NCBI GenBank assembly: GCA_036340075.1
Contig: JAYYZJ010000003.1
Location: 31,261-95,260 of the forward strand
Length of the DNA: 64,000 nt
Reading direction: 5' to 3'
Origin: Thermodesulfobacteriota bacterium
Lineage (GTDB): Bacteria > Desulfobacterota_D > UBA1144
Below, piece after piece: positions 929 through 60,038 of this stretch. A model generated the notes under the pieces. That model made no database searches, had not been told where the DNA came from, and saw nothing but the letters and a program-made list of their open reading frames with translations. The translations under genes and the position numbers were made by a program. The stretch's first letter is position 1. Each line of letters begins with the position of its first letter.

Positions 929-3592
929 TTAATGTGAATCTGCCCATGTTTTACCACTTTTAAGTTCTACCACTAAAGGGACATTTAACTTAATAGAATT
1001 CTCCATATGACTAATTATACGTTCTGAGACATATTCTATCTTATTTTTTTTCACTTCAAATACTAACTCATCATGAACTTGTATTATCATCTTACAATGT
1101 TTTTCAATTGAAAAATCATCATTGATGCATATCATCGATTGTTTGATTACATCAGATGCTGAACCCTGAATAGGGGTATTTATTGCTGCCCTTTCCGCAG
1201 CTGCTCTAAGGGCAAAATTATTCGAATTGATTGTTTCGATATACCGTCTTCGTTTAAGAATTGTTTCAGCATAACCTTTTTGACGAGTTAAATTTTTTAT
1301 TTTTTCAAAAAATTCTTTTACTCCACTATATCGTTCAAAATACTTTTCAATATATTTTCTTGCTGTTTTTGTATCTTGGTTGATTTGCAAAGCTAAACGT
1401 TTAGCTCCTATTCCGTATAGTATTCCAAAATTTATCGTTTTTGCTATTCTTCTTTGTTCCTCACTTACTAGATGCTTTCTTAAATTAAAAATCTCAGAAG
1501 CTGTCTTAGTATGGATATCCTCTCCGCTTTTAAAACTTTTTATCATTTCTTTGTCTTTCGAAAAGTGAGCTAAGAGTCGAAGCTCAATTTGAGAATAATC
1601 TGCGGAAACAATAATCGAGTCTTTATCACTTGAAACGAAAGCTTCTCTTATCCTTTTTCCCTCAGTTGTTTTTATTGGTATATTTTGTAAATTTGGATTA
1701 CTTGAAGAAAGTCTTCCGGTAGCGGTCCCTACATGATTATAAGACGTATGTATTTTCTTTGTATCAGGGAAAACAAGTTCGGGTAATAAATCAAGATATG
1801 TGGATTTAAGTTTAGAGTAAAATCTAAAAAGTAAAATTTCATTTAATACATCATGTTGATTAATAATATTTTGTATAGATTCAGAGTCAGTCGAAAATTC
1901 TCCTTTTTTTGTTTTTTTAAATGGTTTTAAATTTAATTTTTCAAATAATATCTTTCTTAATTGTAAGGGTGAATTGATATTAAACTCTTCATCTACTTGT
2001 TTATATATTTTTTTTTGCGTTTTTTTAATTGAAGTATTGAATTCTTTTGACAAGCTTTTGAGTTTTTTTTGGTCTATTTTGACCCCTTCTTTCTCCATCT
2101 GTGCTAATACATAAATAAATGGAATTTCATATTTACTAAAAAAACTCATCAACTTATTTTCTTTTAATTTTTTGCTGAACAAATAAAACAATCTTAGAGT
2201 AATATCTGCGTCTTCACATGAATAATTAACTGCTGTATCAATTTTCACATCTGAAAACGGGATACTCTTTTTATCGATAGTTGTAACCTCCTTATAAGTT
2301 ATCATCTGGTGGTTAAGAAATCTTCTAGATAAATTATCTAGACTGTATGTCTGCAAAGAGCTATCAAGGAAATGTGCGGCTATCATTGTATCGAAAAAAA
2401 TACCCTTGAGATTTACGCCATATTTAGAAAAAACTATAATTTCATATTTTATATTTTGACCGATTTTCTTAATTTTTTCGTTCTCAAGTATTGGTTTAAG
2501 ATTTTTAATTATATAATCAATTTTAAGCTGATCTATTTCTTCTTTGTGAGATATAGGTATATAAAAACCAGTCTCTTCAATGAAAGAAAAGGATATTCCC
2601 ACTATTTCTGCCTCTATAGGGTTTGGTGATGTAGTTTCTAAATCTAAGGACACAAAATCCGATTTATTTAAATTGGATAATAATTCTTGAAAATCATCAA
2701 TAGTTAATATTGATTTATAATTAGAATTTTCTACTTTTCTATAATTAGTCTTTTGGTCAACAAACGATTCAAATTCTAGCTCTACAAAAAGGTTGTTTAA
2801 GGCTTCTTCGTCTGGCTCTATTATTTTAAAATCTTCCGTTTGAAGGGAAATATTCAAGTCTGTTTTTATTGTCACCAATTCTTTGCTAAGATTTGCTTCT
2901 TCTTGGTAATCCAGTAGAAGATTCCTTATTCGCTCGTTTTCAACCTTATCTAAGTTCTTATAAAGATTTTCTAAGGTCTTGTGTTTCCCAAGCAATCCTT
3001 CAGCTGTTTTAGGACCTATTCCCTTAACTCCTGGAATATTATCTATCGAGTCTCCAACCAAAGAAAAGAAATCTATCATTTGCTTTGGACTTAATCCATA
3101 TTTTTTTACAACTTCATCGACCGAGGTAGTTCTGTTCCTCATTGTATCAATCATTGTAACTTTTGAATCAATCAATTGAGTAAAATCTTTATCGCCTGAA
3201 AGGATGATAATGTTATGTTTTGACTTAAATTTCTTAACTAGTGAGCCTATTACATCATCAGCCTCATAATTTTCCATGGACAACACTCTAACTCCTTTTG
3301 CTTTCAAGAAATCTATAATTATTGGAAATTGTAAAGAGATGTCTTCAGGTGCTTCTCCTCTATTCGCTTTATATTCATCAAAGATATCATTCCTAAAGGA
3401 TTTACCACCTGAATCAAAGACTGCAGCAAAGTAGTCTGGTTTAGTTTCTTCAAGCAATTTGTTAATCATGGTTACAAAACCAAAAATTGCATTCGTAGGG
3501 AACCCTTTAGAGTTCTCTAGGTAGTTTATTGCATGATATGCTCGGAATACATAAGAGCTAGCATCTAATATAAAAAAGTTTTTTGAGCTCAT
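929..3592 (-). CDS. polA: DNA polymerase I
   Basis: 887 aa. N-terminal 5'-3' exonuclease region and central 3'-5' exonuclease region. Polymerase motif A DYSQIELR, motif [16 protein letters not shown], motif [10 protein letters not shown]. Confidence 0.95.
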
Positions 3593-3903
3593 TCAAGATT
3601 AAGCTTCTTTGCTAATTCCCCATTTTCAAACATTTCAATACAGATATCACATCCTCCTAGAAATTCTCCATCAACATAAAGCTGAGGAAGTGTAGGCCAA
3701 TTAGAAAATTCTTTAATAGATGAGCGAAGCTCTGGATCAGCTAGAACATCAAAAGTCTTATATTCTATGTTGAAAGTATTAAGAATTTGAACAACTTGTG
3801 AAGAAAAGCCACACATGGGCATCTCTGGTGTACCTTTCATAAATAAAACAATTTTATTCTCTGCTATTGATTTAGCTATCAAATCTTTAATCTCTTCGGA
3901 CAT
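3589..3903 (-). CDS. grxD: monothiol glutaredoxin (Grx4/GrxD type)
   Basis: 104 aa with the CGFS active site ([10 protein letters not shown]) and [18 protein letters not shown]. Overlaps the polA start by 4 nt (ATGA). Confidence 0.9.
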
Positions 3904-3912
3904 AATCTCCTC

Positions 3913-4167
3913 TTAAGTATCCAACTCTTTTGGAGAAAGAGTTTTCATTGATAGTGCATGGATATCTTCTGCCATGTCACTGCCTAATACTGAATATATA
4001 ATTTTATGTCTTTCGAGAGTAGATTTTCCTTCAAAAATAGGGCTAATAATCACTGCCTCAAAATGAACACCATCTCCCTTAACATCAGCTTTTGTTTCAG
4101 GAATAGAGGATTCTATTTTCTCTTTTATATACTCAACATCCATCGCAATATAATTATTATAATACAA
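3913..4167 (-). CDS. bolA: BolA-family protein (likely true start at the internal Met MDVEYIKE, about 4143)
   Basis: DGVHFEAVIISPIFEGKSTLERHKIIYSVL matches the BolA fold signature (HF...S..F.G.....RH..VY). Lies immediately upstream of the CGFS glutaredoxin. Confidence 0.75.
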   Translation of the reverse strand: MYYNNYIAMDVEYIKEKIESSIPETKADVKGDGVHFEAVIISPIFEGKSTLERHKIIYSVLGSDMAEDIHALSMKTLSPKELDT

Positions 4168-53194: not shown

Positions 53195-53908
53195 ATGAGT
53201 TTTTTACAGCATTTTGGGATATTACGTAAAAGTTTTATCAAAGTTATTTTATTCTTAGTTATTCTCTTTATCCCAGCGTTTTTTTTCCGCGACCTTCTGA
53301 TGGACTTTGCACTTATGCCAATGAATCAATCTTTACCTCCTGATTCAAATATAATCTTTACAAAACCTGCTGAGGGACTGGCAGCTAATATTAAGATTGC
53401 TTTTTTAGCTAGTTTAATTATGACAATGCCAATAATTATTTATGAAATTTGGAGCTTTATTAAACCCGCTCTTTATGAAAACGAGAGGCTTGTCTCTTCA
53501 ATAGTTATAGTGGTAGGGTCTCTGCTATTCTTTGCTGGAGCGTGTTTTTGCTTCTTTCTTGTTGCACCTGTAGCATTTGATGTACTAATAAATCAATATT
53601 CATCTGAGACAATAACCCCTCTTCCTAATATAAGTGATACTTTGGGATTTTTAACTTCTTTAATACTTAGTTTTGGAATAATTTTTGAGTATCCACTTAT
53701 TATCTTTCTGCTATCCAGGTTTGGTTTAACTTCTGCTGCTTTTTTATCATCAAAAAGAAAATATTCGATTCTATTATGTTGTATTCTTTCTGCAATCCTT
53801 ACTCCCACAACCGATGTAATTTCAATGTTGTTTATGCTTTTACCCCTCTTGTTGTTTTATGAAGTTGGCGTATTAATAGCGTATCTATTTCACAAAGAAG
53901 ATAATTGA
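53195..53908 (+). CDS. tatC: twin-arginine translocase subunit TatC (start taken at MSFLQHFGILRKS)
   Basis: Six-TM protein. The N-terminus FLQHFGILRKSFIKVI matches the TatC L.HL.ELR.RL consensus. Confidence 0.85.
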   Translation: MSFLQHFGILRKSFIKVILFLVILFIPAFFFRDLLMDFALMPMNQSLPPDSNIIFTKPAEGLAANIKIAFLASLIMTMPIIIYEIWSFIKPALYENERLVSSIVIVVGSLLFFAGACFCFFLVAPVAFDVLINQYSSETITPLPNISDTLGFLTSLILSFGIIFEYPLIIFLLSRFGLTSAAFLSSKRKYSILLCCILSAILTPTTDVISMLFMLLPLLLFYEVGVLIAYLFHKEDN

Positions 53909-53958
53909 TAAGGAATCGTAATAATAGTAATCTTAATAAATCAACAAGGGGGCTTAAA

Positions 53959-55191
53959 ATGGATTCACCGCTAGTGGATTTTGTGTCTGGGAATTTGCAA
54001 CTTAATCCGTCATCAAAGCATATTGAGGATTTCGTTAAGGGAGAAATTTTGTATCATGGCTCTATTCAAATTACTCCTTTTAGACATAAAGAATATATTA
54101 AAAAGTTTAATAAAAATTATCTTCTTTCAATAGATCGGTCTGACATGAAAAAAGTTGGCTTGATTGATCCTGACAAAGATTTAAAGAAAAAAAAATTCAA
54201 TATAGATAATCCGGGATTTGTTAGTCAGGGATATTTGTTCAATGTTGGTTTTGGTTTAAGTGTTCATGATATCTCATTTAATGCTATAGCCAACTTGTCT
54301 TATAAGAATTTAAAATATGGGTCACCAGTTTTTGAGGGGGACATACTTTATGCTAAATCAGAAGTACTGGGTATTGAAGTAAAAAAAGATGGTGCTAGCA
54401 ATGGTTCCGTACAAGTTAAAACGGTAATTACTAACCAAAGAGATGAAGTAGTATTGGAGTACGTTAGACAGGTTCTTGTGAGAACGAGAAGAGGAGTAAC
54501 TATTGATGCGCAAACAACTACAGAAGAGCAACCTTCTGGTATTGATATTAATGAAATTAATATTCCCTTACAGTATAAAGATTTAAACAGAGAGTTTAAT
54601 TTTCCTAGAGATACTAAAGTAGGTGGAGATACTGAGGTCATTCCTGGAAAAGTTGTGAACTTTAAAACTTTTGAGGAATTTAAAGAGGGAGAGATTTACG
54701 AAGGAAATTTTTCAAAGGCAATTAATTTAGTTGACTTCAGTTGGCTACAAATTAGTACTCTTAACGACGCAAGCATACATCATACTCCTTCATCAAACTT
54801 TATAGGCTATGGGGGAGCAGTTAAATCATTAGTCGAAGGCGAAGTAAGTCATAACATACCATATGCTTATTTCTTAGGTATGAATTCTGGGTCTCATGAT
54901 GCGCCCACATATCCAATTGACATAGTTCAATCGTCGTTTAATTCAGATGATGATGATGATGAAAAAATTATAGGTAGCTTTGAAGTAAAAGAAAAAATTC
55001 AAATTAAAGATAGAGATGATTGTGGTGTATTAAAAATAGAGTTGCGTGGAGATAAAATTGTAACCAAAGCTGGCTTAAGGGCTTACGAAAAAACTGGATT
55101 TAAAGGTATAACAAAGATTCAGGATAATTTAATAAGAGTTTTAACAATGGAGATGCTGATTGCCGTTCCGACAAAGGGAGCCTATAAATAA
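53959..55191 (+). CDS. double hotdog-fold (MaoC-like) dehydratase/hydratase family protein
   Basis: The first half carries GDILYAKSEVLGIEVKKDG...VQVKTVITNQRDEVVLEYVRQVLV, typical of MaoC-like hotdog domains. The second half repeats a hotdog-like pattern. AAGGGGG SD lies 6 nt upstream of the chosen ATG. Confidence 0.5.
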   Translation: MDSPLVDFVSGNLQLNPSSKHIEDFVKGEILYHGSIQITPFRHKEYIKKFNKNYLLSIDRSDMKKVGLIDPDKDLKKKKFNIDNPGFVSQGYLFNVGFGLSVHDISFNAIANLSYKNLKYGSPVFEGDILYAKSEVLGIEVKKDGASNGSVQVKTVITNQRDEVVLEYVRQVLVRTRRGVTIDAQTTTEEQPSGIDINEINIPLQYKDLNREFNFPRDTKVGGDTEVIPGKVVNFKTFEEFKEGEIYEGNFSKAINLVDFSWLQISTLNDASIHHTPSSNFIGYGGAVKSLVEGEVSHNIPYAYFLGMNSGSHDAPTYPIDIVQSSFNSDDDDDEKIIGSFEVKEKIQIKDRDDCGVLKIELRGDKIVTKAGLRAYEKTGFKGITKIQDNLIRVLTMEMLIAVPTKGAYK

Positions 55192-56885
55192 TGTCCGACG
55201 AGAAATATCCAATTAACGATTTAAACCATCCTGTAACTTACAAATGGATAAATGACTTTGATTATGCTTGGAATACTAAAAGTGACCAGAAGAACTGGGT
55301 TCTGCCTAAAGTATTAAAAGAACAGGCAAAAAAGATTCCTGATAAAGAGTTTCTTCAATTTAGCTACAACAAAGCTCTCACCTTTTCCGAGGTAAACAAA
55401 AAAGCTAATCAAATTGCAAATTCTCTTGAAAGTTTGGGTGTCAAAAAGGGTGACAAGGTTTCGGTTTATATGCCTAACTCTTTGGAAATCTGTTTAGCCT
55501 GGTTCGGAATACTCAAAAATGGGTCTGTAATGGTCCCTATCAATACTGCATATGTTATGGATTTTTTACAATATATAATTGAAAGCTCTGATTCAAAATT
55601 AATTATTATTGCCGAAGAATATATGGAAAGGCTAGCAAACATTCAAACAAGAATACCTCTAATAGATAATGTTGTTGTCTGGACACGAAATGGCAAAGAC
55701 AAATTTGATAGTATGGGCTACAATGCAAAGGAGTGTATTTCTTGGAAGAAGTTTATAGAACAAGGGGAAGACTCAGAACCACAAGTTGAAATTACTCACT
55801 TAGACCATGCAAGACTTATGTACACATCTGGCACTACTGGAAAATCAAAAGGGGTAGTAAGGCCCTGTGCTGCTGATTTTTCATCAGCTCAAAACTATTC
55901 AAGCATAATGGACATCAATCCGGATGATACTGTTTTTACTTGTCTTCCTCTGTTTCATTCCAATGCAATGGTGATGGGAGTCTATCCTGCTATGATTAGG
56001 GGGGCAAAAGTTGTTGTTGAAGAAAAATATTCTGCTAGTAAGTTCTGGAAATGGATGAAAGATTTTGGCATAACAAAATTTAATCTCGTTGGGGTAATGT
56101 CGTATTTTATGTGGAATGCTCCAGAAGTCCCTGAAGAAAAAGAACATAAAGTTAAACTTGTTTTAGGCAGTCCTGCTCCACATGACATAATAGAAAAATT
56201 TATGGATAGATTTAATATACTTTTTATGGAAGGGTACGGTTTAACTGAAGTTGGACAATGTACCTTTATGAGACCAGGCGAACCTTTTAGGGTAGGATCT
56301 TGCGGGAAGGAGTCTCCTGGCTATGAAATTAAGATAGTTAATCCTGATACAGATGAGGAACTACCTCGTAATACACCTGGGGAACTTGTTTTAAGGCCTC
56401 GCATACCAAACATATGCTTGCATTATTATTATAAGATGCCAGAAAAAACTGTTTCTGATTTTAGGAACTTATGGTTTCATACCGGTGATTTATGTCGAAT
56501 GGACCAAGATGGATATATTTTCTTTATGGATAGAGTAAAAGATTATATTCGTAGAAGAGGAGAAAATATTAGCTCCTTTGAAGTAGAAAATCTTATTTCA
56601 ACTCACCCTAAGATTGAAGAATCTGCTGCTATTGCAGTAAAGCTTGACGAACAAGGTAGGCATTCGGAAGACGAATTAATGAGCGTCATTGTTTTAAAAC
56701 AAGGAGAAAAACTTGACCCAAAGGAATTAATAGAATTCTTGGAACCAATAATGCCCAAATTTATGATTCCAAGATTCATTAGATTTAGAGATGCTCTTCC
56801 AAAAACTCCAACTAATCGAGTTCAGAAAGTCAAACTTAGAGAAGAAGGTGTAACCAAAGACACCTGGGACGCATTAAAGAAATAA
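55191..56885 (+). CDS. AMP-dependent synthetase/ligase (acyl-CoA synthetase family)
   Basis: AMP-binding motif YTSGTTGKSKGV, TEVG (GYGLTEVG) and C-terminal lid Lys. 564 aa. The start overlaps the preceding gene's stop. Confidence 0.85.
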   Translation: MSDEKYPINDLNHPVTYKWINDFDYAWNTKSDQKNWVLPKVLKEQAKKIPDKEFLQFSYNKALTFSEVNKKANQIANSLESLGVKKGDKVSVYMPNSLEICLAWFGILKNGSVMVPINTAYVMDFLQYIIESSDSKLIIIAEEYMERLANIQTRIPLIDNVVVWTRNGKDKFDSMGYNAKECISWKKFIEQGEDSEPQVEITHLDHARLMYTSGTTGKSKGVVRPCAADFSSAQNYSSIMDINPDDTVFTCLPLFHSNAMVMGVYPAMIRGAKVVVEEKYSASKFWKWMKDFGITKFNLVGVMSYFMWNAPEVPEEKEHKVKLVLGSPAPHDIIEKFMDRFNILFMEGYGLTEVGQCTFMRPGEPFRVGSCGKESPGYEIKIVNPDTDEELPRNTPGELVLRPRIPNICLHYYYKMPEKTVSDFRNLWFHTGDLCRMDQDGYIFFMDRVKDYIRRRGENISSFEVENLISTHPKIEESAAIAVKLDEQGRHSEDELMSVIVLKQGEKLDPKELIEFLEPIMPKFMIPRFIRFRDALPKTPTNRVQKVKLREEGVTKDTWDALKK

Positions 56886-56939: not shown

Positions 56940-58289
56940 CTACTTATCCCAAGGATACTTTTTTACAGGCTTTTGCTTGTAAGGATTTTTCATATCAGGA
57001 TTAAAATATTTAAATGTATTTACATGCTGATCAGTATATGAACCTGGAGGATAATATTTATCATAAAAATCTAAGTCCAAATTCTGAGCCTGAAAAACTA
57101 ACCTCATATACATAGGGTCGACAAATGCTGGAAATGAACCATATGTTTCATATATGTATTCAGCTACCGACTTCACAATTTCTTTTGTTGTGTCAGTAGG
57201 CTTCGGAGCCTTAACTAAATGCTTATCTGGTTCCTCATATGGAAAAGGCTTTGTATCTTTCCAGGCAGCCCATTTATGCTCATCCATCTTATCAAAAGCT
57301 TCCGACATTGATTTATAATACGGTGGACAATATCCTTCAAATATTCCGTCTTTACCAACTGGTCTTGTTGGTCCAGCTTTTGGCTGCTCGAATCTAAATC
57401 CAAGCCCTTTGAAAAGCTCTGGATTAGAACCAAGGGTAAAACGAGGAATCAGTCCTGTAAAAGTCCATCCGCCTAATCCAAGAGCTTGAAGTGCTAACGA
57501 CATATTTTGACAAATAAATGCTTGTTCAACATTTAAACCTGTCAATATTCTTACTTCAAGATCATAAAGTGACATTTTAACTTCTTCTTTTATTCTTCCT
57601 TTTTCTATCCATTTATCTTGTCCGCAGGAACGGTTATTCTTGTCATCCCAAATATTGAAGGCATAGGTGCTACTACAATACAGGGTTAAGAGGTTTAAAT
57701 ATTCCTCTGTTATGTCAGTTACTGGAATAAATGTTGTTGTTCCGGGCTTATTGGTGTTCCATTGATTAAAATCAAACAAGCCAGGCATTTTGTCAGGTAA
57801 ATTTGCTCTTCCATCTTCTAATTTAACCAGGCCTTCTCTATATAGCTCAAGCAATCTTTCAATTTTATCGTTTCTATCAAGTTGAAAGAACATATCAAGT
57901 TCTTTGTCTTTGGGTAGCATGTGTTTTACATCTACATAGTATAAGCCAGAGTCATTGGTAAAGAACAATTCTGTTCCATGATTGTTACACGCAGACGGCC
58001 AAGTTCTTCCTGTCCATTGACACAATAAATCAATCCCATTTTCTGGAGGCAAGTCTGCTAGACACAAACCTGTTAATCCAGTTCCAGCCCATACCAACAT
58101 TGCTTCTTGAAACTCTGTCAAAGGTATTGGTGGAATATCAGATTTGTGAGCCAAGCTGCTATCGGATGGTAGCTCCATTCCTGTTCCAAATCTTCTTGAT
58201 CTCCTATTAAATATTGCTTCAAACAAAGGATAGTTTAAAGCTGCATCGTAATTAACTTTCCCATTGGTTTTTCCGTTTTTCTTTGCCAT
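56940..58289 (-). CDS. nitroreductase-superfamily (SagB-like) flavoprotein, atypically large (449 aa)
   Basis: N-terminus LFEAIFNRRSRRF (nitroreductase RRS.R.F box), TWPSACNNHGTELFF (resembles the SagB-type PSAG..ELY FMN motif), and QNMSLALQALGLGGW (C-terminal nitroreductase dimer-interface helix). There is also a roughly 160-aa extra C-terminal region. Confidence 0.6.
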   Translation of the reverse strand: MAKKNGKTNGKVNYDAALNYPLFEAIFNRRSRRFGTGMELPSDSSLAHKSDIPPIPLTEFQEAMLVWAGTGLTGLCLADLPPENGIDLLCQWTGRTWPSACNNHGTELFFTNDSGLYYVDVKHMLPKDKELDMFFQLDRNDKIERLLELYREGLVKLEDGRANLPDKMPGLFDFNQWNTNKPGTTTFIPVTDITEEYLNLLTLYCSSTYAFNIWDDKNNRSCGQDKWIEKGRIKEEVKMSLYDLEVRILTGLNVEQAFICQNMSLALQALGLGGWTFTGLIPRFTLGSNPELFKGLGFRFEQPKAGPTRPVGKDGIFEGYCPPYYKSMSEAFDKMDEHKWAAWKDTKPFPYEEPDKHLVKAPKPTDTTKEIVKSVAEYIYETYGSFPAFVDPMYMRLVFQAQNLDLDFYDKYYPPGSYTDQHVNTFKYFNPDMKNPYKQKPVKKYPWDK

Positions 58290-58350
58290 GATAAATCACA
58301 CTCCCTTCTTATATTATTATAGCAAAGGTAAAAACGAGAAAAAAGGCTTT

Positions 58351-58785
58351 TTAAATTTGTTGTTTTAGCTGGTTTCTCTTGATTTCTTTGATAGCGAGCT
58401 TCAAGGTAGAGATGCCCAAAGTAGAACATTTGGGCCTAGAAAGCGTTAATTCTTCTCCTAAAATATCCGACATTAATTCTGGCCCCATATTTAGAACTTC
58501 TTCTATGTCTTTTCCTATAACCATTTCTGATATAATAGATGTTCCAGCCTGACTAACTATGCATCCTTCACCTTCAAACTTGAAGTCTTTTATGACTCCA
58601 TCATCATCTACTTTAAGACAAATGCTAATTATGTCACCACATCCTGGATTGCCTCCCTTCTGGAGCACATCACAGCGACCTGCTTCTACATCTGCATCTT
58701 CAATAGTCCCTGTATTCCTAGGATTTTCATAATGGTCTAGGATGAAGTCCATTAACTCCTGTTTCTCTTGTGATTCGTCGGACAT
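58351..58785 (-). CDS. Fe-S cluster assembly scaffold, NifU/IscU/SufU family
   Basis: HYENPRN box and three scaffold Cys in GCGD, FEGEGC and KCS. It has the Lys-before-Cys and FEGEGC features of SufU, but IscU-like spacing. Confidence 0.8.
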   Translation of the reverse strand: MSDESQEKQELMDFILDHYENPRNTGTIEDADVEAGRCDVLQKGGNPGCGDIISICLKVDDDGVIKDFKFEGEGCIVSQAGTSIISEMVIGKDIEEVLNMGPELMSDILGEELTLSRPKCSTLGISTLKLAIKEIKRNQLKQQI

Positions 58786-58796
58786 TATCTTTCCTG

Positions 58797-59639
58797 CTAC
58801 TTCTCAATTGGTGCTTGAACTAAGTTGCCCCATTCGGTCCACGAGCCATCATAGTTCTTAACATCTTCAAACCCAAGTAGATAAGTTAAAACAAACCAAG
58901 TGTGCGAAGATCTTTCTCCAATTCTGCAATAAGCAATAACATCATCTCCAGTCTTAAGTCCTGCACCGTTTTGATAAATTTCAACTAATTCATCTGCTGA
59001 TTTAAATGTACCGTCTTCATTAGCAGCTGTAGCCCAAGGAACACTAGCAGCATTAGGGATGTGTCCTCCTCTTAATGCTCCTTCTTGTGGATATGCTTCC
59101 ATATGAAGTAGTTCACCAGAATATTCTTTAGGTGAACGAACATCAATCAATGGCTTATTTTGATCGCTATGAGCCCTTACATCATCTCTAAAAGCCCTAA
59201 TTTTAGTGTTTAGGTTGCTTACTTTATAATTTGACGCTGGAAAATCAGGCTTGTCTTTAACTACTGGCTTACCTTCGTCTATCCACTTTTGTCTTCCCCC
59301 ATTCATAATAAGACATTTTTCGTGTCCATAAATTTTAAAGGTCCACAAAGCATAACATGCCCACCAATTACTCTTGTCTCCATAAAAAACAACTGTGTCA
59401 TCGTTAGTAATGCCTTTTGATGACAACAATGCTTCGAAATTTTCTTGATTTACATAGTCTCTTACAAGGCTGTCTTGAAGTTCGGTTTCCCAATCAAGCT
59501 TAATTGCTCCTTCAATATGACTAACTTCATAAAGAAGTATGTCCTCGTTTGATTCTACAATTTTAATTCCATCTTTGTCCTTGTTTTCTAAAACCCAATC
59601 GGTAGTAACAAGAACCTCAGGATGTGCATAATCTGCCAT
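58797..59639 (-). CDS. sseA: two-domain rhodanese sulfurtransferase (thiosulfate/3-mercaptopyruvate sulfurtransferase)
   Basis: 280 aa with tandem rhodanese domains and active-site loop CRIGERSS. The stop lies 11 nt before the scaffold gene start. Confidence 0.8.
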
Positions 59640-59771
59640 TTTTCTTCCCCCCTTTACAATTTTGAGTCTAAATTGACCTAAAAATTGATGATTTAGTATA
59701 AAAAAACGCTAGAAACTAATGATACAACAGTTTTTATTTTTAACAAATTTTTATTTAAAATTCTCATTTTT

Positions 59772-60038
59772 TTGTATATCATTTCAGATATGTCAGACGA
59801 TGGAAACCAAACAGAGCTAGAAGATGGTCTTGAAGCCAAGCAAGCGGATGAAGCTTTTGATAGTGAAGCTTCTACCGAAGATGAATCAAGCGGAATAGAA
59901 GAAGTATTGCCCTATCCTGATAGAGTTCCGAATTCAAAAAAAGGGGTTTCGCATTCACATTCTTATGTGATGATAGGACTTGTTTTATTGATGGTTCTTT
60001 TCAGTTTTATTATTTCGAATTTTACTTTCTCTTATTAA
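59772..60038 (+). CDS. hypothetical small protein with acidic N-terminus and single C-terminal TM helix; doubtful
   Basis: 88-aa ORF (MSDDGNQTELEDGLE...VMIGLVLLMVLFSFII). Preceded by a 130-nt AT-rich spacer. Overlaps the uvrA 3' end by 54 nt. No homology recognised. Confidence 0.25.
   Translation: MYIISDMSDDGNQTELEDGLEAKQADEAFDSEASTEDESSGIEEVLPYPDRVPNSKKGVSHSHSYVMIGLVLLMVLFSFIISNFTFSY

Follow-up and report, generated by a model that had tools for sequence, protein, structure and literature searches.

Among the closest described counterparts of the locus analyzed here are the SufS-SufE and SufS-SufU relays, in which a persulfide-forming enzyme, a PLP desulfurase, is followed by a dedicated cysteine acceptor; SufU is the Bacillus-type zinc-dependent sulfur acceptor of SufS. 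The other counterparts are the two-domain thiosulfate sulfurtransferases of the CRxGx[R/T] loop type, such as the mycobacterial CysA/SseA-like rhodaneses, and the solved enzymes of the nitroreductase superfamily. Our locus, from a marine Dadabacteria genome, encodes a rhodanese, a NifU-like protein, and a protein of 449 amino acids (aa) that we label X449. We think, on balance though not by much, that the locus combines two modules that can occur apart, a putative sulfur-transfer pair and a predicted flavoprotein, which stand side by side in Dadabacteria and are probably co-transcribed.

Gene order and the rhodanese/NifU-like pair

The window (the whole 64-kb stretch of DNA that was analyzed) carries the three genes on the minus strand in the order rhodanese, NifU-like, X449, with gaps of 11 nt (58786-58796) and 61 nt (58290-58350), and the open reading frame (ORF) coordinates agree exactly with those of the operon in the initial annotation:

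58797-59639, minus strand: rhodanese gene, ORF of 280 aa
58351-58785, minus strand: NifU-like gene, ORF of 144 aa
56940-58289, minus strand: X449 gene, ORF of 449 aa
59772..60038, plus strand: gene for a small conserved tail-anchored protein, divergent from the rhodanese gene and directly upstream of it

Cysteine desulfurase, SufBCD, and YcaO genes had been described as missing nearby, and indeed none was found within about 10 kb (Pfam lists, identical TARA contig). The plus-strand gene encodes a protein with an acidic N terminus, a YP[DE]RVPN..KG motif, and a C-terminal transmembrane helix; it has no Pfam match. Its arrangement with the divergent rhodanese gene recurs at 19 Dadabacteria loci, marine and non-marine, and the gene may be accessory to the rhodanese/NifU-like pair.

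The rhodanese has two domains, as had been noticed from its sequence: it matches Pfam Rhodanese (PF00581, 1e-30) in two stretches, which correspond to tandem domains, and its catalytic Cys238 lies in the C-terminal domain, within the CRIGERSS loop (residue 238), which is of the thiosulfate-sulfurtransferase type. Against the 3-mercaptopyruvate sulfurtransferase model NF008557 (NCBIfam), it scores 106.8 bits, under the cutoff of 250. Identity among Dadabacteria loci is 70 to 92%. Outside Dadabacteria, the rhodanese/NifU-like pair also occurs within standard SUF operons on three contigs (L093-L095, one of them labelled Anaerolineae), whose rhodanese is 60% identical to that of the window over the full length.

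The NifU-like protein matches Pfam NifU_N (5.7e-27), contains the motifs GNPGCGD, FEGEGC, and RPKC, and has the conserved ligands C49/D51, C75, and C120 in an alignment with its orthologs. Across 15 aligned Dadabacteria sequences, one of them the window protein, C120 is preceded by K, Q, or R; the window protein has Lys there, and no His. Among the profile models, the protein reaches 81.2 bits for SufU (TIGR01994; cutoff, 92.5), in a match that spans only profile positions 6 to 91 of 137, and 79.8 bits for IscU (TIGR01999; cutoff, 192.4), from which it also differs by Lys-Cys instead of His-Cys, and it is under the cutoff of the clostridial NifU equivalog as well. Between Cys2 and Cys3, the window protein and all aligned orthologs lack the stretch of about 19 residues that is inserted in Bacillus SufU, and so do the two NifU_N paralogs encoded in the Anaerolineae SUF operon (L094). 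The NifU_N match, FEGEGC, Lys-Cys, and the missing insertion together bear out the earlier description of a SufU-like scaffold that lacks the SufU insertion. In L093-L095, a 50% identical NifU_N gene sits between the rhodanese gene and SufS, whereas the window gene adjoins no SufS.

The predicted fold of X449

All motifs that had been named for the third protein are found in its translation: the RRSRRF box (residues 29 to 34), WPSAC (97 to 101) followed by ELFF (107 to 110), the C-terminal QNMSLALQALGLGGW helix (261 to 275), YPPGSY, and the terminal KYPWDK. By structure comparison, the predicted structure of X449 has the alpha+beta FMN-binding fold of the nitroreductase superfamily, and the closest solved structures are BT_0217 (8cqs), Reut_A1228 (3hj9), Ava_2154 (3eo7), ThcOx (5lq4), BmdC (7ly4), and McbC (6gos), at sequence identities of 11 to 18%. 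Pfam PF00881 was not matched by X449 even at an E value of ≤10, 4 of 39 family members touch this model (best E value, 0.011), and TIGR03605 and the other NCBIfam models matched none of the 39 at E values of ≤10. Searching a close-family X449 profile against PDB sequences found no nitroreductase, and hhalign comparison with an NfsB sequence was uninformative. A more diverse profile (A3) gave marginal nitroreductase matches and aligned the QN..LGLGG element to Frp, NfrA1, and NfsA. The superfamily assignment of the initial annotation is thus upheld by the fold, but not by any Pfam or TIGR03605 match; judged from its model, X449 falls in a branch of the FMN nitroreductase superfamily that carries no annotation, and its fold is visible only by structure. 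The proposed SagB resemblance fares similarly, with SagB/ThcOx/McbC-type enzymes among the nearest structures but no TIGR03605 match. SagB/TOMM membership was rejected on this ground and on genomic context, since no YcaO, NRPS, or precursor-peptide gene was found in the Pfam-annotated neighborhoods or among the recurrent neighbor families identified by Pfam or by eye.

Only about 165 to 170 residues of X449 superpose on nitroreductase cores. The remainder consists of a central insertion (about residues 120 to 240) and a C-terminal extension (about 325 to 449), with approximate boundaries taken from secondary structure. The extra mass, which had been described as a C-terminal region of about 160 aa, is therefore real but split between the two. 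At least 90% of 77 family representatives share RRSRR (29 to 33), N262, G271, and G273, which are candidate FMN-site residues, mapped by motif only. Residues 73 to 103 have a pLDDT of <50 in the model, yet form a highly conserved segment. C101 is the only Cys of X449 that is invariant in the Dadabacteria clade, where His104 is invariant or nearly so; this WPSAC Cys is kept in 22 of the 77 representatives, and its replacement in the wider family is mostly Asp. An Fe-S cluster site in X449 was set aside, given a single Dadabacteria-invariant Cys that is not conserved family-wide.

The X449 family comprises 1,691 clusters at 50% identity, is covered by no Pfam or NCBIfam model, and is labelled hypothetical in every source; labelled matches include Dadabacteria, Chloroflexi, Acidobacteria, and Tectomicrobia. 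X449 is about 90% identical among marine genomes, and in the 1.2-Mb streamlined ones it is under stronger constraint than UvrA. Nothing relevant on the triad, on rhodanese in suf operons, or on the X449 family was found in the searchable literature, nor was any description of the rhodanese plus SufU-like arrangement.

Synteny, modularity, and candidate transcription signals

The three genes are found together at 41 of the 78 Dadabacteria X449 loci, so the triad does recur in related genomes, with counts that are inflated by shared ancestry because all of these loci belong to one phylum. The adjacency persists while both outer flanks change, is present in each of the two branches that separate first in the ortholog tree, and is kept in the 1.2-Mb streamlined genomes; the gaps are short and uniform (∼50 nt). 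About half of the Dadabacteria X449 loci are without the pair, and in one Dadabacteria genome the pair stands alone, apart from X449. None of the 84 loci outside Dadabacteria has rhodanese/NifU-like neighbors: these are 80 distant-clade metagenome loci, recovered in a scan with the family alignment (A4), in all of which the X449 relative is solitary, and four contigs. X449 paralogs have no such neighbors either. Among the loci examined, adjacency of the pair and X449 was found only in Dadabacteria. Since about half of the Dadabacteria loci and all 84 others are without the pair, X449 does not depend on the sulfur module.

In non-marine Dadabacteria, X449 is part of a same-strand cluster of six genes, Rhd-SufE-SufU'-X449-FAD reductase-polyferredoxin (a membrane polyferredoxin), where it holds a middle position with overlapping neighbors to both sides; the genes for SufE (PF02657) and the NifU-like protein overlap by 4 nt. 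In the 64-kb marine window, tblastn found no SufE, FAD reductase, or polyferredoxin. This fuller cluster, with its SufE, FAD reductase, and membrane polyferredoxin, had been omitted from the initial annotation.

Three features bear on transcription of the marine locus:

59719..59746, minus strand: candidate sigma-70-like promoter, TTGTTA-16-TATCAT, upstream of the rhodanese gene (consensus scan, 9/12 positions)
58290..58350, minus strand: NifU-like/X449 spacer, 61 nt, with the TGCTATAAT -10-like element and an AAGGGAG ribosome-binding site
56846..56865, minus strand: terminator-like hairpin (terminator scan), about 75 nt past the X449 stop codon

The TTGTTA-16-TATCAT match hints, weakly, at a promoter of the rhodanese gene. 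Both strings that had been read as X449's own expression signals are present, the extended -10-like TGCTATAAT at 58316-58324 (minus strand) and AAGGGAG ahead of the ATG, but the former is not enriched in the window (3 occurrences versus 6.5 expected by chance) and by itself is therefore no evidence of a promoter; as proof of a separate X449 promoter, we rejected it as uninformative. The TATAAT-like hexamer of the spacer recurs in most marine relatives, its TG extension in only 2 of 9. Given this -10-like element, the spacer may contain a separate promoter for X449; a scan of the spacer for a terminator-like hairpin found none. The hairpin beyond X449 falls within the 3'-terminal part of the acyl-CoA ligase gene, which is convergent, and is consistent with a unit that ends with X449 in the marine clade.

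A proposed two-module reading, its alternatives, and known systems

In the two-module reading, the rhodanese and the short SufU-like NifU_N protein (with SufE in non-marine relatives) would be an accessory sulfur-entry pair of SUF assembly. Cys238 of the rhodanese would carry a persulfide taken from thiosulfate or another sulfane donor and would pass it to a Cys of the SufU-like acceptor, in parallel to the SufS-to-SufU step. The second module, X449, would be a homodimeric FMN-dependent oxidoreductase that binds FMN in the manner of canonical nitroreductases, through the RRSRR box, R95, and the QN...GLGG helix-strand, and whose two large extensions form a substrate or partner site. Its most likely role in the Dadabacteria lineage, which we put forward tentatively, would be electron transfer in aid of the handling of sulfur or iron when cells face oxidative stress or iron stress; the acceptor could, for instance, be persulfide sulfur, reduced to sulfide, or Fe(III), reduced to Fe(II). 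In the non-marine genomes, the FAD reductase encoded next to X449 and the membrane polyferredoxin may pass on electrons from NAD(P)H, and in the streamlined marine genomes the electrons may come directly from NAD(P)H; such a chain is not general, because the marine window is without SufE, FAD reductase, and polyferredoxin. Acyl-CoA ligase and SSF genes are among the recurrent neighbors of X449 and point to a role other than redox support.

The initial annotation proposed a flavin dehydrogenase wired to a sulfur relay. In such an integrated system, the rhodanese and the SufU-like protein (and SufE) would hand persulfide directly to X449 for FMN-dependent sulfur insertion or persulfide reduction without a cysteine desulfurase. 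The same-strand, short-gap adjacency across the deepest tree split argues for it, as do the lack of a desulfurase near the triad and the (near-)invariance of Cys101 and His104 in Dadabacteria, within a conserved but low-pLDDT segment, as for a site that is ordered by a partner or cofactor. However, outside Dadabacteria the pair is a component of SUF operons, where it adjoins SufS, and in one Dadabacteria genome it is found apart from X449; X449 is without it at all 84 loci outside the phylum, as are the paralogs; and Cys101, the obvious persulfide acceptor, is kept in a minority of the family. The pair thus behaves as an independent module, the wiring is not supported, and direct integration is unlikely. 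More speculative still is that Rhd-(SufE)-short SufU-X449-(FAD reductase-polyferredoxin) constitutes, in Dadabacteria, a self-contained, cysteine-desulfurase-independent line that carries thiosulfate-derived persulfide to X449, as a new FMN-dependent persulfide reductase or sulfur-inserting enzyme, and feeds Fe-S cluster or thio-cofactor synthesis; if true, the wider X449 family would be an unrecognized flavoenzyme class with a core cellular role.

Under chance juxtaposition, X449 would act by itself as a flavin, quinone, or ferric reductase under stress regulation, and neutral inherited gene order would account for its place beside the pair. The solitary relatives in the distant-clade metagenome loci and the four further contigs suit this explanation, as do the ECF sigma/anti-sigma or FUR genes that precede X449 in several lineages, the -10-like element in front of the gene, and synteny evidence that comes from a single phylum. 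It is improbable nonetheless, because the adjacency outlasts the change of both flanks and spans the deepest ortholog-tree split, the gaps are short and uniform, streamlined genomes retain the adjacency, and X449 lies between overlapping neighbors in the middle of the non-marine cluster. It is also doubtful that X449 serves carboxylate or acyl-CoA metabolism as an FMN-dependent dehydrogenase or ene-reductase, acting with an acyl-CoA ligase, a MaoC-like hydratase, and a solute symporter and only incidentally beside the sulfur pair, because the ligase operon in the window is convergent with X449 and not co-transcribed with it, such neighbors are missing at most Dadabacteria loci and at distant loci, and the identity among marine genomes is unusually high for a peripheral catabolic enzyme.

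For a large, strongly constrained family annotated only as hypothetical, the predicted placement of X449 in the nitroreductase superfamily provides a concrete biochemical starting point: FMN, NAD(P)H, and a homodimer. The recurrence of the rhodanese and short SufU-like pair inside SUF operons suggests a second sulfur-entry route into Fe-S assembly, and the six-gene Dadabacteria cluster is a candidate module for the supply of sulfur and electrons that lends itself to testing.

Compared with known systems, the order of a persulfide-forming enzyme and a dedicated Cys acceptor is that of the SufS relays, but the donor encoded at the Dadabacteria locus is a rhodanese instead of a desulfurase, and SufBCD is absent from the Dadabacteria loci examined. 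The acceptor shares with SufU the NifU_N fold family, the three Cys and the CGD Asp, FEGEGC, and the lack of a His before Cys3; it differs from Bacillus-type SufU in lacking the Cys2-Cys3 insertion, and from both SufU and IscU in scoring under their cutoffs and in its rhodanese partner. With the two-domain thiosulfate sulfurtransferases, the rhodanese shares tandem domains and the catalytic Cys in the loop of the C-terminal domain, and it is distinctive in being kept beside a SufU-like gene and in lying, on three contigs from outside Dadabacteria, within SUF operons. X449 is structurally similar to the azoline/peptide oxidases ThcOx, BmdC, and McbC but has no YcaO/cyclodehydratase, NRPS, or precursor-peptide gene nearby, and it is about twice the size of canonical nitroreductases, with a central insertion and a C-terminal extension that are covered by no solved structure.

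Gene organization of the locus

The locus consists of three co-directional genes, the last of which encodes a protein that we call X449:

58797-59639, minus strand: rhodanese, 280 amino acids, two Pfam rhodanese domains (1e-30)
58351-58785, minus strand: NifU-like protein, 144 amino acids, Pfam NifU_N (5.7e-27)
56940-58289, minus strand: X449, 449 amino acids, no Pfam or NCBIfam match

In the window sequence, the gaps are 11 nt (rhodanese/NifU-like) and 61 nt (NifU-like/X449). These positions are exactly those of the initial annotation, and all the motifs that it quoted were found; its observations hold, and its interpretation was borne out in part only. The window belongs to a genome of marine Candidatus Dadabacteria. 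TARA Oceans contigs carry identical copies, and in our genome scan the nearest genomes bear the labels Dadabacteria UBA1144, TMED58 or Thermodesulfobacteriota. Genomes of this marine Dadabacteria group are streamlined, at ∼1.22 Mb (PMC8115339).

No terminator-like hairpins were found between the three genes; one lies ∼75 nt past the X449 stop codon, and upstream of the rhodanese gene there is a site that weakly resembles a promoter. The 61-nt spacer contains TGCTATAAT, and a TATAAT-like hexamer recurs in the spacers of most marine relatives. The extended −10-like element from which separate expression of X449 had been proposed is present, but the motif is not enriched in the AT-rich window (3 observed versus 6.5 expected). 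A single transcript of the three genes, with an internal promoter as an option, is plausible.

Other genes of the window were also noted:

59772-60038, plus strand: small conserved protein, no Pfam match
53905-56885, plus strand: 428-amino-acid protein and 564-amino-acid acyl-CoA ligase, convergent with X449
3589-4167, minus strand: 104-amino-acid ORF with a CGFS motif and adjoining 84-amino-acid ORF

The small protein, whose true start is likely the Met of MSDDGNQ, 6 codons in, has an acidic N terminus, a YP[DE]RVPN..KG..H.Y.M motif and a C-terminal transmembrane helix; in 19 Dadabacteria loci, marine as well as non-marine, its gene lies immediately upstream of the rhodanese gene and divergent from it, and it shares 54 nt with the 3' end of uvrA, which is on the other strand. 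The 428-amino-acid protein has only subthreshold similarity to MaoC/mesaconyl-CoA hydratase; its gene shares base 55191 with the ligase start (start/stop overlap), and the two genes are found beside X449 at every marine locus as well as at loci L022 and L029. By eye, the CGFS ORF is monothiol glutaredoxin-like and the adjoining 84-amino-acid ORF possibly BolA-like; if these identities hold, both are candidate Fe-S trafficking genes.

X449, a conserved family of predicted flavoenzymes

One main interest of the locus lies in X449, which belongs to a large, highly conserved, unannotated family of predicted flavoenzymes, with 1,979 matches in a 90%-identity database; clustering at 50% identity gives 1,691 groups. 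Members are mostly full length (about 420 to 480 amino acids), every one is named "hypothetical," and no precomputed Pfam domains were found for them. Residues conserved across the family are the RRSRR box, G37, R95, D113, R161, G183, P189, D215, N262, L265, G271, G273, PP322-323 and P387. Cys101 of WPSAC is invariant within the Dadabacteria clade; family-wide, position 101 is Cys in 22 and Asp in 30 of 77 representatives. Across the 15 marine relatives, identity is ∼90% for X449 and lower for the products of nearby genes (rhodanese, ∼82%; acyl-CoA ligase, ∼83%; NifU-like protein, ∼73%; UvrA, ∼62%). Judged by sequence identity, the constraint on X449 is unusually strong for an unnamed protein.

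Structure prediction gives X449 a nitroreductase-like fold, suggesting a flavoenzyme of the nitroreductase superfamily. It matched neither the PF00881 nor the SagB-type (TIGR03605) sequence model, and no TOMM or NRPS context was found around it. Of the initial label, "SagB/nitroreductase-like," the fold part is retained: X449 is best classed as a new subgroup within a known superfamily and not, in function, as a SagB/McbC homolog.

The highly conserved residues 73 to 103 (window about 57981-58073, minus strand; GLTGL...QWTGRTWPSACNNH) form the sole internal region that the model fails to place (pLDDT of <50); they are probably ordered by dimerization, a cofactor or a partner. The distant family member P0187 (863 amino acids) carries a fused N-terminal MpaB/Lcp-type oxygenase domain (PF09995, 8e-27), and N-terminal twin-arginine (TAT)-like signal peptides in three members (P0144, P0166 and P0190) suggest that exported variants exist.

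Genomic association of X449 with the rhodanese/NifU-like pair

The genome scan yielded 462 loci with genes for X449 relatives. The best 80, all of the Dadabacteria lineage, were analyzed, with an X449 ORF called in 78 and adjacency scored by tblastn and ORF clustering. Of these 78, 41 have a rhodanese gene and 40 a NifU-like gene upstream of X449 in the same orientation (all 15 marine loci and about 26 others). The triad is syntenic in related genomes, a check that the initial annotation had proposed. In the larger non-marine cluster, the order is rhodanese, SufE (PF02657, 1e-25), NifU-like, X449, Pyr_redox_2 flavoprotein (1e-49) and membrane 4Fe-4S polyferredoxin. The SufE and NifU-like genes overlap by 4 nt and the Pyr_redox and polyferredoxin genes by 1 to 46 nt, forming two tightly coupled pairs; X449 sits between them with gaps of ∼50 nt, overlapping the Pyr_redox gene by 1 to 4 nt in a few loci. 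At two loci, the X449, Pyr_redox and polyferredoxin genes occur in this order but the sulfur genes are missing, and no SufE, FAD reductase or polyferredoxin gene was found within the 64-kb marine window. Pyr_redox_2/Fer4_5 genes lie directly downstream of X449 at L033:7438-10115 and at some 25 further loci of Dadabacteria (L043, L069 and L079, for example); the flavoprotein has a Cys-free N-terminal YSRPAL segment, a motif of ferredoxin/rubredoxin-reductase-type enzymes, and its partner is a multi-transmembrane 4Fe-4S protein with Fer4_5.

Other Dadabacteria clades have an ECF sigma factor and RskA-type anti-sigma factor ahead of X449 (about 16 loci) or unrelated neighbors. In a neighbor-joining ortholog tree, the rhodanese-NifU adjacency occurs in the marine clade at the base and again in a large nested clade, but not in the clades that separate the two; on this distribution, the adjacency was either ancestral and lost at least three times or gained twice.

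Beyond Dadabacteria, no rhodanese or NifU-like gene adjoins X449 relatives on 4 long contigs or at 80 metagenome loci of a 31 to 43%-identity clade (45 with >1.5 kb of upstream flank), where the X449 homolog is mostly alone amid opposite-strand housekeeping genes. That X449 is a stand-alone stress reductase, its adjacency to the pair neutral and inherited, appears unlikely nonetheless. The pair is also absent from a group of X449 paralogs of about 55% identity:

L087:7401-9305: X449 paralog (about 55% identity), directly downstream of a FUR-family regulator gene
L088:1130-6622: two tandem X449 paralogs, closely packed in one operon with genes for an AMP-binding ligase and an SSF symporter

The ligase, MaoC and SSF genes that recur near X449 would fit a function in the metabolism of carboxylates or acyl-CoAs, which we consider improbable. 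At some distant-clade loci (L103:6897-7724, L104 and L120), a 275-amino-acid RRSIRYF-box protein, canonical nitroreductase-like by eye, adjoins the X449 homolog, sometimes in tandem copies. Unrelated lineages have ECF sigma/anti-sigma pairs of two distinct kinds ahead of their X449-family genes (RskA type in Dadabacteria, for example at L036, L037, L042 and L065; Cupin_7, possibly ChrR-like, at L092:4553-7395 in a distant clade), which hints at stress-responsive regulation.

The pair in SUF operons and a composite reading of the locus

The other main interest is the association of the pair with SUF, the iron-sulfur cluster assembly system. All three Cys and the Asp of CGD are retained in the NifU-like protein, which has FEGEGC; it scores under the SufU, IscU and NifU equivalog cutoffs. 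By sequence it is a short SufU-type protein: unlike IscU, it has K before the third Cys (Q or R in orthologs) and not His, and unlike Bacillus-type SufU it lacks the insertion, as aligned with IscU/SufU reference sequences. Its closest relatives beyond Dadabacteria (∼50% identical) lie on three contigs, one labelled Anaerolineae, within canonical SUF operons (regulator-SufC-SufB-SufD-rhodanese-NifU-like-SufS-second NifU_N-Rieske-SufT) that have a two-domain rhodanese and two short SufU-like NifU_N genes flanking SufS:

L093:5114-8685
L094:2213-5929
L095:5073-8686

Their rhodanese is 60% identical to that of the window over its full length. At L094, the stop codon of the NifU-like gene overlaps the start codon of SufS, and both NifU_N paralogs are short Lys-Cys forms. 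This arrangement suggests two parallel sulfur donor-acceptor pairs within one SUF operon. Because such relatives sit in SUF operons, the protein initially described as an IscU/SufU hybrid, whose hybrid features we confirm, is a recurring short-SufU type and not a one-off, and the pair is a SUF-type Fe-S biogenesis module conserved across phyla. In the Dadabacteria genome AH_259_B03_O07, the pair forms a two-gene unit on its own, and both X449 genes (L034 and L044) lie elsewhere without it. A literature search of incomplete coverage found no paper on the SUF-embedded pair, the triad or the X449 family, and earlier descriptions are possible.

The locus is best read as a composite of a SUF sulfur-entry pair and a separable X449 oxidoreductase. 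The pair, with SufE in larger genomes, would be an accessory sulfur-entry unit of SUF assembly. X449 would be an FMN oxidoreductase representing a new subgroup of nitroreductases, kept beside the pair in Dadabacteria and, in larger genomes, also beside an NAD(P)H-FAD reductase and polyferredoxin. Since SUF accessory genes, the reductase chain, ECF sigma/anti-sigma pairs and FUR recur as neighbors, we tentatively favor a mechanism in which X449 would deliver electrons to processes that handle sulfur or iron when cells face oxidative or iron stress. The flavin dehydrogenase wired to a sulfur relay that was originally envisaged is not supported: X449 and the pair are separable and their association is gone outside Dadabacteria, and passage of the persulfide on to X449 is doubtful.

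Within the composite, family knowledge and operon context suggest that the rhodanese would form a persulfide on Cys238 and pass it to the SufU-like acceptor. X449 resembles PF00881 nitroreductases in fold but does not match their sequence model, and the SufS-SufU step serves as the model for the proposed transfer from rhodanese to the SufU-like protein.
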